NCBI GenBank assembly: GCA_010093705.1
Contig: MU006089.1
Span: 154,875 to 218,874, forward strand
Source: Patellaria atrata CBS 101060
Lineage: Eukaryota
Length of the DNA stretch: 64,000 bases
Reading direction: 5' to 3'
Positions 29,291-33,717 of this stretch are shown piece by piece. Positions within the stretch are counted from its first letter, which is position 1, and each line of letters opens with the position of its first letter. The notes below the pieces were generated by a model. The model searched no databases and had not been told where the DNA came from. It was given only the letters and a program-made list of their open reading frames with translations. A program made the translations under genes and the position numbers.

Positions 29291-30838
29291 TCAACGTTTC
29301 CGTCTCCTCCCCTTTCCTGCACCTAGTGGATTTCCACTGCTACTGGCAACCGATTTTCTCGGTATATCTGCGCTAGAAGCAACTTCCCTAGTATCATTAC
29401 TACCACTTTGGTCTCGTTCGCGCTCATTAACAAGATCCCTTTCCCGTACTTGGTCCACGGGCTCTGCTATGACGTTGGGTCTACTGATCCGAGCGTCATT
29501 TCCAGTATTAGAATTGGGTCCTGAGCCAGAAGCAGCGGTGGAGAGTGCGTGCGTCATTGTTGGATTAGAGTAACGGTCCGACAATCCCGCAGGTACTGTG
29601 ACTGGAGCTCTCTCGGGAAGCGGTACAGATGCCGAATTAACACTCGCTATTGAAGAACCTGTGCCTGTCGAAACGCGTCGGAGCAATTTTGAATATGCGA
29701 CCTCCGGAGGACCTGACCCAACTCTTCTCATCGACGGAGGAGTAAAGGCAACATTCGTGGAAAGGGCAAATGTAGAACCTATTGGGCTAGGAGGCCATGC
29801 ACCAGGCTGCTGAGCAACACTGTCACTTCTTCCCCTCCGACCTTCGAAATCGCTTTCATGGATAGAAGAGTGCCGTGAACCGGAACTTGGAGGCCGAAAT
29901 GAGTCGAACGATGGTCGAGGATACGTCGTGTAGCCCCCGCCGATCTGAGTAAGATCAAATTGTGTAGGTGGAGGGTTGGAGTAGCGGCGCGAATTATTGG
30001 TACTTGAGGATCTGGATCCCGGGCGAGAAGATCTCGGACGCGTACTAGTCTGCTGTTGTGGGGAGACGTATGGTCCTTGTGAGGATGCCACCACGCTTTC
30101 CGGGCTTTCAGTGACAAAGTTGGACGCCGCAGGCCCAGTTTCCCCATGGGTTTGTACGGGAGCGGCAACGGGATCAGTGGTGCGGCGCGGACTTGACTTC
30201 CTGCTCGCACTTTTGCTGTTTCTGGACCTCGGTGATGGGGAACCGAAGATGCTATTAATCGACATCTTTCTTTTTGATCGAATCTTATCTAAGGATGGGG
30301 CACGTTGTGCAGTAAGTCGCTCGTCAACGATGGAAGCAATTGGGACTAAAACCTCCGATTGTTGTCGTTGTTTCCTACGTTCCAGTGCTTCCAGCTCGGC
30401 AGTAGTAAGAACAACATTTGTTTTGCCTTCTTCTCTTGCTATGCGTATCTGCTCCATGGCCCGCGTTATTAAATGTTGATCAATGTCTTTTGCGGGAGTT
30501 GATGTATTAGAACCACTTCTCTCGCCGAGACTGTACATATCTTCAGCTCTGGGAAAGCCGTAATCTTCTCCAAACGCTGAAGCTTCGCTTCCTCCTTCCT
30601 CCCAAGAATCATTAAAATAAAGTCTATCGGGAACAAAACGCCTCTGTGAAAACCCAGGCTCAATAATAACACTATCCTGCTCGTTCTCTCCTTCACTATC
30701 ACCTGCATCTCTAAGTCTGAAAACATCATCATATCCTACTACTCCTCGTCTTCCCTGTTGCCTCCCTGACGGTCTTCCCCATGGGGGCAAAGCATATGGA
30801 GTTCGCGGCCGACCGCTTAGACCGCCTCCTCGGAAAAA
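29291..30838 (-). CDS. -1 frame extension of YIP3 (~515 codons; long isoform ~685 aa via programmed frameshift)
   Basis: A stop-free ORF overlaps the YIP3 3' end in the -1 frame and is entered at T TTT TCC (30838-30832). It has no ATG near the junction, is S/R/P-rich with a helical core ITRAMEQIRIAREEGKTNVVLTTAELEALERRK, and ends GKGRRRKR. Confidence 0.8.
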   Translation of the reverse strand, partial: FFRGGGLSGRPRTPYALPPWGRPSGRQQGRRGVVGYDDVFRLRDAGDSEGENEQDSVIIEPGFSQRRFVPDRLYFNDSWEEGGSEASAFGEDYGFPRAEDMYSLGERSGSNTSTPAKDIDQHLITRAMEQIRIAREEGKTNVVLTTAELEALERRKQRQQSEVLVPIASIVDERLTAQRAPSLDKIRSKRKMSINSIFGSPSPRSRNSKSASRKSSPRRTTDPVAAPVQTHGETGPAASNFVTESPESVVASSQGPYVSPQQQTSTRPRSSRPGSRSSSTNNSRRYSNPPPTQFDLTQIGGGYTTYPRPSFDSFRPPSSGSRHSSIHESDFEGRRGRSDSVAQQPGAWPPSPIGSTFALSTNVAFTPPSMRRVGSGPPEVAYSKLLRRVSTGTGSSIASVNSASVPLPERAPVTVPAGLSDRYSNPTMTHALSTAASGSGPNSNTGNDARISRPNVIAEPVDQVRERDLVNERERDQSGSNDTREVASSADIPRKSVASSSGNPLGAGKGRRRKR

Positions 30839-31347
30839 GCTGACTCTATTGGTTTGTCCATGAAGACGGCATGCCCGAGAATGCTCACAGCACTGGCACC
30901 GATAAGCCACATGAGGGCAGCAACGGGGCCGGCGTATATTCCAAGAGGGACACAAACAACGAGAAGGGTAGTATAGAGCTGAGATGTTGTCGCTCGCACA
31001 AAGCCGAGATCCAGGTCATTGCCGCCAAGCATCCCGATGCCATACATGCCAGCTACGAGGAGACAAATAACGAAAAGAAGTAGTAAATTCGTCAGTAGGC
31101 AGTAGATGCCTAACATGACGAATACAACCGAGTAATTGCTGGAGAAATAGCCTAGGTTGTAGTTGACTCTACTTTGCACCTCCCCAAAGTTCTGTGGCTT
31201 TGAAAGTCGTTTGAAATCGAAGAATTCGGATATAGGCTTGAGATTTGCGAATCTGGCGGCTATCGATTGCGAGCGCACGCTGTCGAAGCGACCGGAAAGG
31301 TTGAGACGAGACGTCAGCGCGTCTATAGGCAGGCTGATACGTGCCAT
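30817..31347 (-). CDS. YIP3: PRA1/Yip3 prenylated Rab acceptor (176 aa, short form)
   Basis: NLKPISEFFDFKRLSKP..SRVNYNLGYFSSNY, a hydrophobic core and the C-terminus GHAVFMDKPIESAFSEEAV*. Confidence 0.95.
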   Translation of the reverse strand: MARISLPIDALTSRLNLSGRFDSVRSQSIAARFANLKPISEFFDFKRLSKPQNFGEVQSRVNYNLGYFSSNYSVVFVMLGIYCLLTNLLLLFVICLLVAGMYGIGMLGGNDLDLGFVRATTSQLYTTLLVVCVPLGIYAGPVAALMWLIGASAVSILGHAVFMDKPIESAFSEEAV

Positions 31348-32281
31348 CTTTGCTGAGATCTATGTGGTATGAAGGTCTGAATGGGAGAGAAAAGCGTGGG
31401 TGTGGGCAAGCGGTGCGATTTAAGTTGGCGTGCAGAGTCTAGATTAGAACTATTGTGATACCTGGTCAGTTTCGGTAGAAATAATAATAAGCACCCAGGT
31501 TTCAGAGAGAAGCGATATAGCCGGCGATACGGGCTATGTCTCGAGTCTTCCTCTTCATCAGATGCTAAAGCAGGCGATATATAAAGGCTTACTTGGGATG
31601 GGATAACTGAATTGAAATGAGCCAGGAGAATACCGGAAAAGAAAATTCAAGTGACCGAATTTTATTTATTACTAGGAGAGAATTAACAGAAATTGAATGA
31701 TCAAAGAGAAGACGTTAAATATTTGCAATGGAATTTTTGGGGCTGACGCGACGACTTTAGGGACACGAAGCCCCTTTTTGCACCCATCTTCCCAAACAGG
31801 CGTAGCCCATTGTAAAGTAATTCTATCATACAGTAGCGAGCTTATCTCATGTTCTATACTTTGTATTATACGACAATCTTCGTCCCGGATTGGAGACGGT
31901 ACTCCTGTGGTAAGGTAAGGTACTTCGCCTTTCCTTTTACAACTTACTTTACCAGCGGAAAAGCAATGGAATCACCAGAATGTATATAAGTTGCCTAGTC
32001 TTACGAAAGAATATGTACGGTACTGCACCTGGTGTACAATTGTATAATAGAACTACATATAGTCCAACCTTTCATTGTAAGAGCTATATATTAGATTACC
32101 CCCAATTGTGAATTGTACAAGGTTGTTTACGGTAGGTTCGGCTTCAAAATGTTCGACCGTTTTCCCAGAGCTTCAGCTACGTAGCCCAAACCAAAAAGAT
32201 ATCGCATCGCCATTTTCTTATAATAGAGTAAGACCTTATTAGTTTGCGAATCTTCTTCCAAACAATTCTCATTGCATCGCA

Positions 32282-33717
32282 ATGAGGTCTAATATAGTAT
32301 ACTCTGTCTTGCTATTAGTGTTCGCTACATTTATTGCAGCTTGGACTTCTGAAGGTGCGTGCAACTTTCTCAAAGCCATAAGTTACCCCCGACGCTTGCT
32401 GGAATTATTTCCAACATGCAATCCTACCATTCCAGCGTTTCTACTTTAGCTTGCTAATAATATTATCCATCAGACCACGAAGTTTTCCGCCTCCGTGACG
32501 AAGTTGCATCTGCTGAAGGCGACAATGTAACATTCTACGACCTCCTTGGAATCAAACCTACGGCGACACAGGATGAGATCAACGCCGCTGTGCGTAAAAA
32601 GTCTCGGACCTTGCATCCCGACAAGGCTCGTCAATCATACCTAGCAACCTATTCCAAGACACAGTCATCCTCGAAATCCGATAACAAAAAGGGGAAGAAA
32701 CCGGGCGTGACTGTGCGGAAGAAGCCCACCCAGAAAGAGCTGGCCAAGTTCCAAAAAGAAGCTGAAGAGAGGTATAGGCGTATAACTATTGCGGGTGATG
32801 TGCTCAAAGGTCCTCAGAGAGAGCGTTACGACCATTTCCTCAAGAATGGCTTCCCTAAATGGCGTGGAACGGGCTATTACTATTCACGCGCCCGTCCTGG
32901 GCTCGGTACCGTCCTATTCGGCCTGTTCGTCATGGGTGGTGGAGCAGCCCATTATGGCCTTTTGTACCTAGATTGGACACGTAAGAAGCAAAGAGTTGAG
33001 AAGTACATTTCTGATGCCAGAAGGGTAGCTTGGGGAGATGCTGCGGGTATCCCCGGTCTCTCAGATACACTTGATGGAACCGGAAATGGCACCGCCACTC
33101 CTCCACCACAACGGGAAAACGAGGACAGTATGAATTGGAATCGACGTGCGAAAAGGGCTGCGGAGAGGGAAAATCGCAAAGCTGGCAAGAGCGGAAAAGC
33201 TGCTGCGAAAGCGAGAAACTCAGGTATCAGCACACCGGTAGAAGCTTCTCTGACATCTGGGCCGACAGGCGCGAAGAAGAGAGTTGTAGCAGAGAACGGA
33301 AAGGTGTTCATCGTTGATTCTGCTGGGAACGTGTTCCTAGAAGAGGAAAGTGAGGATGGAGTCGTGACCGAGTATCTGGTTGATGTGAGTATTCCGCTTC
33401 AAGAGTCAAGGTCCTCTACGTCAGGATCTTTTTGGTAGAGGTCAAACGTAATTTAACTTGTGATTCATCAGATCAACGAGGTCCCAAAACCAACCATCTA
33501 TGACACGCTCCTTTTCCGGTTACCACGTTTTGCGTACGACCAAACCCTCGGCCGCGTCACGAAGAAAAGAGCAATCACAGAGGTATATCTTACAGAGGAA
33601 GAGGTTAGCGGTGCTGCAGAGGATTCGGACGAGAAAATACTAACAGAAGCCACTGCGTTGAATCCCAACAGTGAAGCTAGAAAGCGAAAAATCAAGAGGG
33701 CCAAAACTGCAACATAG
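32282..33717 (+). CDS. ER-localised DnaJ-domain membrane protein (Erj5-like)
   Basis: Signal peptide (MRSNIVYSVLLLVFATFIAAWTSE|DHEVFRLRDEV), J-domain TFYDLLGI...LHPDK, RERYDHFLKNGFPKWRGTGYYYSRARPG and a transmembrane helix. 2 introns. Confidence 0.88.

Follow-up and report, generated by a model that had tools for sequence, protein, structure and literature searches.

A YIP3/PRA1 orthologue in Patellaria atrata, probably decoded by programmed -1 ribosomal frameshifting

The locus described here is very probably a YIP3/PRA1 orthologue, decoded with the programmed -1 ribosomal frameshift that is known for this gene. It lies on the minus strand of the window, the 64,000-nt stretch of Patellaria atrata DNA that was analysed. 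The original prediction had read it as YIP3 with a long extension reached by a -1 shift at U UUU UCC; both the anatomy of the locus and its conservation support that reading. The anatomy, conservation, covariation, and purifying selection in relatives on which we rely below were all observed in this analysis. The proposed course of decoding is as follows: most ribosomes would stop at UAA after 176 codons, yielding an ordinary Rab-acceptor membrane protein, and a small fraction would slip back one base while decoding U UUU UCC. An RNA structure located 2 nt downstream would promote the slip: a G+C-rich 10-bp stem with a 3-nt bulge, the remainder of whose loop would pair with a segment 23 nt past stem 1 to form a pseudoknot. 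Once Phe or Ser had been re-read, slipped ribosomes would go through 513 more codons and reach a total of about 685 aa. This long form would combine the PRA1 domain with a mostly disordered tail that carries one helical hairpin and a basic C-terminus. The features are listed below by position in the window.

30817..31347, minus strand: YIP3/PRA1 short ORF, 176 codons plus TAA (from translation, Pfam, and identity to PRA1 proteins)
30832..30838, minus strand: shift site T TTT TCC (heptamer as in Podospora anserina; phase shared by 73 of 80 loci)
30830..30831, minus strand: spacer GA, 2 nt, between shift site and stem 1
30798..30829, minus strand: stem 1, 10 bp (5' arm 30829-30820; 3' arm 30810-30805 plus 30801-30798)
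30804-30802, minus strand: stem 1 bulge GAA, 3 nt, in the 3' arm
30769..30816, minus strand: proposed pseudoknot stem 2, 6 pairs including one G-U (loop 30816-30811 with 30774-30769)
30787-30784 with 30780-30777, minus strand: mini hairpin CCCC/GGGG inside the pseudoknot
29291..30838, minus strand: -1 frame extension ORF, 515 codons plus TGA (open frame and homologous Pezizomycotina extensions)
30317..30493, minus strand: predicted helical hairpin, extension residues 116-174 (AlphaFold2; the sole predicted folded element)
29294..29317, minus strand: C-terminal Gly-rich and basic tail GKGRRRKR (a Gly-rich, then Arg/Lys-rich end recurs among aligned extensions)

The YIP3 ORF begins with an ATG at 31347 and ends at a TAA at 30819-30817, its 3' end reading GCT TTT TCC GAG GAG GCG GTC TAA. 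Over the shift site the zero frame is GC-U UUU UCC, encoding Ala170, Phe171, and Ser172, with the stop five codons later. The ORF matched the Pfam family PRA1 (PF03208) at E 4.3e-40 across profile positions 2-142 of 143. It had 1448 homologues; those listed were Pezizomycotina PRA1 proteins, 73-81% identical and mostly 176 aa long, and among the matches listed the best named one was from Trichoglossum hirsutum (80% identity).

In the -1 frame the sequence reads FFRGGGLSGRPR... and continues to a TGA at 29293-29291. This frame is open for 574 codons from stop to stop (31015-29291), and the other two frames of the extension stretch hold 14 and 40 stops. The probability of 515 open codons, calculated from base composition, was 1.6e-11, and none of 20000 shuffles of the extension stretch was stop-free (longest open run, 207 codons); chance therefore does not account for the open frame. 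There is no ATG in the -1 frame from 31015 to 30538, where the first one encodes extension residue 101, which agrees with the earlier claim that no ATG lies nearby. Re-reading the frames returned the same coordinates throughout as the original prediction; its sizes of 176 aa and about 685 aa follow correctly from the ORF lengths, and the GKGRRRKR ending that it had given for the extension is present in the translation.

Conservation of the arrangement was surveyed in 80 metagenome YIP3 loci, kept from 185 relatives. No poly(A) tails, sought to spot RNA-derived contigs, were found at the ends of these 80 loci. In 73 loci TTTTTCN stood 19 nt ahead of the stop, in the phase seen in the window; the other seven were of the published +1 type. 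Among the 72 loci that could be read past the site, 48 had complete -1 ORFs of 381-524 codons, 23 had a -1 frame open to the contig end, and one had a -1 ORF ending at 219 codons. An alignment check on TTTTTCC and the -1 ORF had been suggested with the original prediction, and these counts bear out their conservation. The seventh base of the heptamer was C in 62 of these 72 loci, A in seven, and U in three. These 80 loci independently replicate both the conservation and the covariation of the pseudoknot, which is described next.

The minimum free energy (MFE) fold gave the bulged 10-bp stem 1 directly after the GA spacer, with the YIP3 stop codon (30819-30817) in the stem 1 loop. The pairing of stem 2 was proposed from the alignment of loci and then counted on it. 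The proposed structure as a whole was 98.5% paired over 1050 cells, as compared to 35-58% when slid, and both-sided changes were seen at four pairs. Across 50 distinct sequences stem 1 was 100% paired and stem 2 (helix 4) 99% paired; at two of the six pairs of stem 2 both partners vary (GC/GU/AU/CG and UA/CG/UG). In the mini hairpin pairing was 96-100%, but changes were one-sided only. One pair of stem 1 showed a GC-to-AU double change in five rows; these five rows may represent a single event. In locus L061 the AU change replaces two residues of the -1 peptide that are invariant elsewhere (G to S and P to L), an indication that selection acts here on the RNA and not on the peptide.

Conserved residues are encoded in two frames across stem 1 and its loop, and for this reason sequence conservation there is partly not independent evidence for structure. 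The MFE z-score of the 106-nt stretch was unremarkable (-0.60); the structure is thus not singled out by thermodynamic stability alone, and the case for it rests on covariation. A search of Rfam returned no match at E <= 1 within 30650-30950 on either strand, and Rfam appears to hold no model of the YIP3 frameshift element.

Homologues of the extension were recovered as 11 matches in one search and 41 representatives in another, including gene models of Coccidioides, Dendryphion, Sarea, Phialocephala, and Xylariaceae; four of the matches listed in the first search were fused gene models that also contain PF03208. The extension is 37-38% identical to the nearest sequences found. For the -1 ORF, dN/dS had been put forward earlier as a check, and in 11 pairs of related loci it was 0.09-0.30 (0.09-0.26 in the 8 pairs with extension identity of at least 70%), with YIP3 itself at 0.02-0.12 in the same 11 pairs. 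These figures describe pairs of relatives' loci, dS between the window and every relative being saturated. These substitution ratios show purifying selection on the extension when close relatives are compared.

The extension in the window was aligned with 21 locus-derived extensions. From an alignment, AlphaFold2 predicted helices at residues 116-137 and 146-174, with pLDDT of 94-97 at residues 121-160, and the remainder of the extension was mostly below pLDDT 50. The disordered tail of the original prediction is thus mostly borne out by the model, save for this one confident helical hairpin, which is also the best-conserved internal block of the extension. Of the 21 aligned extensions, 20 end in a Gly-rich and then an Arg/Lys-rich stretch; the exception is L061. 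Compared with 48161 PDB representatives, the extension model reached a best Z of 4.6; we assign no fold, because all matches were generic helical hairpins covering residues about 105-181. The only Pfam match of the extension, to Roughex (E 0.043; 13 bits, with the cut-off at 25), was sub-threshold and was set aside as noise.

The annotation of the locus invites other explanations of its two frames. The gene call in the window (P0003, 388 aa) starts at extension residue 128, Met101 is an alternative start, and many database models of relatives begin at a Met at extension residue 17, all as would be expected of two genes, the extension being translated separately from an internal ATG. Residue 17 is Leu in the window, however, and its codon in relatives is ATG, GTG, TTG, ACG, TCG, or AAG, and Met101 lies downstream of the extension's most conserved blocks (residues 1-25 and about 63-75). 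The YIP3 and extension ORFs overlap and leave no room for a promoter, as had been noted from the outset. A long fusion protein has moreover been seen in P. anserina (PMC3777964), and we give separate translation a very low probability. Other database models of relatives are fused (P0006, P0008, P0009, P0010), which would suit a frame-joining 3n+2 intron with its start ahead of the YIP3 stop. At the locus, 319 GT..AG pairs fall in the length class required, yet none of the 319 has both an acceptable donor and a branch motif, and the fused models disagree at the junction, as forced introns would. A joining intron would also cut out two conserved parts, the C-terminus of YIP3 and the start of the extension. 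One locus (L065) is equivalent to two others (L057/L058) minus a genuine-looking intron, and the frameshift is still needed; in P. anserina the reported cDNAs are unspliced at the site (PMC3777964). Splicing is accordingly a highly improbable account of the locus.

The shift site is itself a homopolymer, and homopolymers are error-prone on some sequencing platforms, so that the T run could hide a sequencing or assembly error that has split what is truly one in-frame ORF. A sequencing indel here had been named with the original prediction as grounds for abandoning it. Contigs of two runs from one sample, probably of DNA, cover the T5 run with 0 differences and 0 gaps, at word depths of about 320 and 460; these runs do not count as independent support, since they are possibly the source data of the window. 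Among the sequencing runs listed for the locus none was recorded as RNA, and the three that were compared with it are contigs and probably DNA. The same out-of-frame layout recurs in 72 related loci from many assemblies, and the likelihood of an error is close to negligible. The run could alternatively act at transcription, RNA polymerase II adding an extra U to the U5 run in a few transcripts, although five U is short for polymerase slippage. The product of such slippage (…AFFRGGG…) would match that of a P-site slip. The 12 unaltered cDNAs reported from P. anserina (PMC3777964) are too few to reveal a 1% event. Against polymerase slippage, the conserved, covarying pseudoknot exactly 2 nt downstream would have no role in it, and loci of the +1 type have UUUCU, without a run, and yet keep the long ORF. 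We regard it as improbable.

Under ribosomal frameshifting, the slip would probably be mainly by P-site tRNA-Phe rather than tandem. A P-site slip is supported because the A-site codon varies (UCC, UCU, UCA) with the -1 ORF kept, in 10 of the 72 loci; the free seventh base of the shift site thus bears on the question of P-site versus tandem slippage. A fuller version of the mechanism is possible, though we hold it only tentatively and think it somewhat more likely wrong than right: a pure P-site slip, with tRNA-Phe on C UUU U and a three-part structure as the driver, and an extension that works via its hairpin and basic C-terminus. The three parts would be the bulged stem 1, the pseudoknot stem 2, and the conserved mini hairpin CCCC/GGGG of the long connecting loop, and the structure would begin inside the entry channel of the ribosome. 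With the zero-frame stop in loop 1, termination and slipping would on this P-site reading compete on one folded RNA. If true, the extension would not be filler but, for example, a partner- or membrane-binding module or a tissue-specific degradation signal.

The YIP3 -1 frameshift system is already known, published, and reviewed. The original prediction had referred to a frameshifted YIP3 from Podospora and the Pezizomycotina, and Malagnac et al. (2013, PLoS One, PMC3777964) describe just that: P. anserina has U UUU UCC as its shift site, followed 2 nt downstream by a pseudoknot with a 3-nt bulge, and the system is reported as conserved across the Pezizomycotina, for about 400 million years, with a 3' ORF found only in that group. 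By the account of its authors, YIP3 was the first cellular, non-retroviral gene in which a protein is lengthened by -1 frameshifting (PMC3777964), and the system is summarised in the review of Atkins et al. (2016, PMC5009743). The same report gives a frameshift of about 1% in a yeast reporter against a background of 0.3%, possibly higher in the native host, and a P. anserina long form of 61.6 kDa that a GFP western revealed and that failed to complement the deletion; the 12 P. anserina cDNAs over the shift site were unspliced and unaltered (PMC3777964). By analogy with P. anserina, the mRNA of the present fungus would be unspliced and the long protein would exist in it; sequence conservation likewise suggests that the long form is expressed. 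Annotation has not kept pace with the published system: P0003 splits the locus, and the database models of relatives either contain forced introns or have their start in a wrong frame. Such recurrent misannotation means that Pezizomycotina annotation pipelines should treat YIP3 as a recoded gene.

Among known recoding systems, the 1a/1b signal of IBV (U UUA AAC plus pseudoknot) resembles the window in having a slip site followed by an H-type pseudoknot with a G+C-rich base to stem 1, and with canonical viral signals in general it would share the low, fixed ratio at which a C-terminally extended product is made. The window departs from the pattern X XXY YYZ, since U UUU UCC has UC at YY, and its spacer is 2 nt as compared to a canonical 5-9 nt (the norm as given in PMC3777964); in swap experiments the YIP3 pseudoknot is reported to drive the IBV site poorly (PMC3777964). 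The mammalian genes PEG10/Edr and Ma3 (PNMA) are likewise cellular genes that extend a protein by -1 frameshifting, and the Edr pseudoknot also has a 3-nt bulge (PMC3777964). Unlike YIP3, which the same source describes as without retroelement ancestry (PMC3777964), they are retroelement-derived and use canonical heptamers. The +1 variant of Capnodiales and Ophiostomatales (PMC3777964) belongs to the same gene and extension family as the window, but has UUUCU in place of UUUUU and its extension in the +1 frame, whereas the window is of the -1 type. An intron was also noted inside the +1-type site. The closest counterpart is P. anserina YIP3 itself, which shares an orthologous PRA1/YIP3 5' ORF, a U UUU UCC site at about codon 170 with the stop five codons on, a structure that starts 2 nt further down and combines a G+C-rich bulged stem 1 with a pseudoknot, and a long, poorly conserved -1 ORF confined to the Pezizomycotina. 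The stem 2 proposed here is presumably the published P. anserina stem 2. The extension in the window is longer (515 codons, about 685 aa in total) than that of the 61.6-kDa form, and its identity to the nearest sequences found is only 37-38%. The locus fits as an ordinary orthologue within a rare recoding system that is already known, and differs from it in nothing of kind.

The YIP3/PRA1 gene lies on the minus strand of the window, and its ORF ends in GCT TTT TCC GAG GAG GCG GTC TAA. The original prediction placed a -1 programmed frameshift at T TTT TCC, opening into a long extension. Translation bore out all of its coordinates and sizes, including the products of 176 and ~685 aa and the GKGRRRKR end of the latter.

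Reading frames and shift site (window coordinates)
31347-30817, minus strand: YIP3/PRA1 short ORF, 176 residues (translation)
30838-30832, minus strand: heptamer T TTT TCC (sequence)
30819-30817, minus strand: YIP3 stop codon TAA (sequence)
30838-29291, minus strand: -1 frame extension, 515 open codons from the heptamer to TGA at 29293-29291 (translation)

The short product matched nearly the full Pfam PRA1 profile (PF03208, E 4.3e-40), and its best named match was 80% identical. From stop to stop the -1 frame spans 574 codons, beginning at 31015. Base composition gives 515 open codons a probability of 1.6e-11; the stretch did not stay open in any of 20000 shuffles (maximum open run 207 codons), and its other two frames hold 14 and 40 stops. 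The frame was also predicted to have no nearby ATG; the first occurs at 30538, extension residue 101 counted from the heptamer, with none from 31015 down to that point. Third-codon-position G+C was 0.39 in the extension (29294-30838) vs 0.56 in YIP3 (30820-31347), and thus the two parts of one mRNA are clearly unlike in codon-position composition. The adjoining divergent ORF (32461-33438, plus strand) has by eye a J-domain-like start (…YDLLGI…HPDK…).

The conserved -1 frameshift mentioned in the original prediction for Podospora and Pezizomycotina is indeed in print. According to the available text of Malagnac et al. (2013; PMC3777964), the PaYIP3 mRNA carries a YIP3-like 5' ORF and a larger, Pezizomycotina-only 3' ORF, with a stem-loop or pseudoknot whose start is 2 nt downstream and whose stem 1 contains a conserved 3-nt bulge. 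The long form was detected with a GFP tag, the yeast reporter gave an efficiency of ~1% vs 0.3% in the out-of-frame control, and the long form alone did not complement the deletion. The arrangement was kept in all examined Pezizomycotina but two species; Capnodiales and Ophiostomatales have a +1 configuration. The available text of the review by Atkins et al. (2016; PMC5009743) restates these points, and a literature search on YIP3 frameshifting or Pezizomycotina ribosomal frameshifting found no later primary study. Twelve PaYIP3 cDNAs showed no difference from the gene other than a 173-bp 5'-UTR intron (PMC3777964, available text). A candidate 5'-UTR intron seen by eye ahead of the YIP3 ATG of the window (31439-31592, minus strand) would parallel it; its donor would be GTAAGC at 31592, its branch-like motif CTGAC at 31469-31465, and its acceptor at 31462 or 31439 (131 or 154 nt).

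Relatives were collected by scanning metagenome contigs with an alignment of the window YIP3 and four database proteins, and the best 80 of 185 were kept; loci picked in this way skew the sample to similar Pezizomycotina. The expected conservation was found: TTTTTCN occurred in 73 of the 80, its first T closing a GCU codon and the stop lying 19 nt on. One of these (L059) ends with its contig just past the site, leaving 72 readable loci, with C (62), A (7) or T (3) as seventh base. The -1 ORF was complete in 48 (381-524 codons) and open to the contig end in 23. It closed early in one (L071:743-1400), after 219 codons, with contig sequence for another 272 codons beyond; a truncated allele, an intron or a contig error could account for this.

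The other seven of the 80 loci carry TCTTTCTC in place of TTTTTCN and are of the published +1 type. One, L065, has a +1 ORF of 479 codons. Excision of a 61-nt intron from L070 (3526-3586) brings back the familiar …SEEAV stop ending, with a +1 ORF of 522 codons remaining. A GTGAGT…YAG intron immediately 3' of the stop codon was found in the remaining five (regions L036:3507-3600, L057:2907-3000, L058:3507-3600, L050:1491-1590 and L053:1237-1315). The UUUCU loci hold a ~50-60-nt intron within the stimulatory stem-loop, one codon earlier in L070 than in these five; L065 (874-960) matches L057/L058 with the intron precisely deleted and still requires a +1 shift into its 479-codon ORF. No mention of this intron was found in the available text of PMC3777964.

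Downstream of the heptamer, the mRNA can form the following elements.

Proposed stimulatory structure (window coordinates)
30831-30830, minus strand: GA spacer, 2 nt (sequence)
30829-30820 with 30810-30805 and 30801-30798, minus strand: stem 1, 10 bp, 5' arm and two-part 3' arm (MFE fold)
30804-30802, minus strand: GAA bulge in the 3' arm of stem 1 (MFE fold)
30816-30811 with 30774-30769, minus strand: proposed stem 2 of an H-type pseudoknot (possible pairing of remaining loop bases)
30787-30784 with 30780-30777, minus strand: CCCC/GGGG mini hairpin in the connecting loop

By folding energy the 106-nt stretch does not stand out (z = -0.60); the case for structure depends on comparative data. 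We counted pairs in the three helices across 50 distinct 99-nt segments (window and 49 loci), a region that codes in two frames. Standard pairs filled 98.5% of 1050 cells vs 34.7-58.5% with partners slid by 1-3 columns, a comparison in which the structure has an advantage because it was derived from the same 50 sequences. Two-sided changes occurred in 17 cells (equalled in 0 of 500 shuffles) and at 4 of 21 pairs (equalled in 37 of 500); nine of the 21 pairs were invariant, among them the four outer pairs of stem 1. At one stem 1 pair, 45 rows have GC and five have AU, although these five come from similar loci and may be a single event. One stem 2 pair is GC in 26 rows, GU in 14, AU in 7, CG in 1 and other in 2; the next is UA in 44, CG in 3 (the type of the window), UG in 2 and other in 1. 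The stem 1 double change converts the otherwise invariant -1 peptide FFRGGGLGGRPR to FFRGGSLGGRLR (L061), as selection on the RNA, not on the peptide, would predict. The YIP3 stop (30817-30819) lies inside the stem 1 loop, and in the segment alignment (columns 29-31) the short loop that separates stem 1 from the stem 2 arm invariably holds the zero-frame stop, which is TAA in the window and either TAG or TGA in relatives; termination would therefore take place on the folded element.

Database searches returned 11 extension homologues by word index and 41 representatives exhaustively (E <= 0.001), only six at E <= 1e-10, with a top identity to the window of 37-38%. Named matches were "prenylated Rab acceptor" or "PRA1 family" models from Coccidioides, Dendryphion, Sarea, Phialocephala and a Xylariaceae species. 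Public gene models of the locus disagree: some bridge the frames by forced junctions that differ (P0006, P0008, P0009, P0010), as a fusing intron; some start inside YIP3 in the -1 frame (P0004, P0005, P0012, P0013); still others initiate from an internal Met. P0003, the window's own call (29291-30457), begins at extension residue 128 and holds only the last 388 codons. An alignment of the window with 21 locus-derived extensions (<75% mutual identity, from 48) revealed as common blocks an N-terminal motif, FFRGGGL-GRPR-P…GRP, an acidic stretch, F-x-x-D-x-L-x-F, a helical block, RR-x-x-SGP…Y-S, and a C-terminus that is first Gly-rich and then basic; in the window every common block is present but PPG…DG…YAP, which is diverged. 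The predicted disordered tail agrees with a mean AlphaFold2 pLDDT of 49 on this alignment, except for one confident element, a helical hairpin (residues 116-137 and 146-174; pLDDT 94-97 over 121-160). A fold search against 48161 PDB representatives gave no match above Z 4.6. Nei-Gojobori dN/dS over 11 pairs of loci indicates purifying selection among close relatives: 0.09-0.26 in the extension for eight pairs with at least 70% extension identity and up to 0.30 for three more divergent pairs, with 0.02-0.12 in YIP3 where computable. For the window itself dS is saturated (pN 0.47-0.48 vs pS 0.73-0.79).

Could the two frames be reconciled otherwise? An indel in the T run is excluded as far as reads allow, since contigs from two probable DNA runs of one sample (word depth ~320 and ~460) showed 0 differences and 0 gaps at the shift site. 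These runs may be the window's own assembly data, and recurrence of the out-of-frame layout in many independent assemblies is thus the stronger argument. Within the extension ORF, at 29933, a minor contig of run X2 (depth 22.8 of 218.6) reads C for G, possibly as a low-frequency variant, possibly in error. Conserved extension blocks upstream of the first ATG contradict a separate downstream gene, and the Met at residue 17, the start in many gene models, is also not conserved (Leu in the window). No support was found for a frame-joining intron: among 319 GT..AG pairs in the appropriate length class, not one combined a good donor with a branch motif, and every candidate pair would remove conserved sequence. 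Transcriptional slippage at the U run is unlikely on only five bases and would leave the covarying pseudoknot without explanation.

The preferred reading is ribosomal frameshifting. Since the seventh base varies freely (UCC, UCU or UCA) around a fixed C UUU UUC, and since codon-anticodon rules suggest poorer A-site re-pairing on UUC with UCA, a single P-site slip is favoured; the ribosome would slip by one tRNA-Phe move, as Malagnac et al. suggested (PMC3777964, available text). With a spacer of 2 nt, it would encounter the structure sooner than in viral frameshift signals. The finding is real and its interpretation correct, in a system already known; in practical terms it is of value for annotation and for an independent 80-locus survey. 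This Pezizomycotina locus represents a typical orthologue of the published recoding system, and shares with the PaYIP3 structure the 2-nt spacing, the G+C-rich stem base and the 3-nt bulge.
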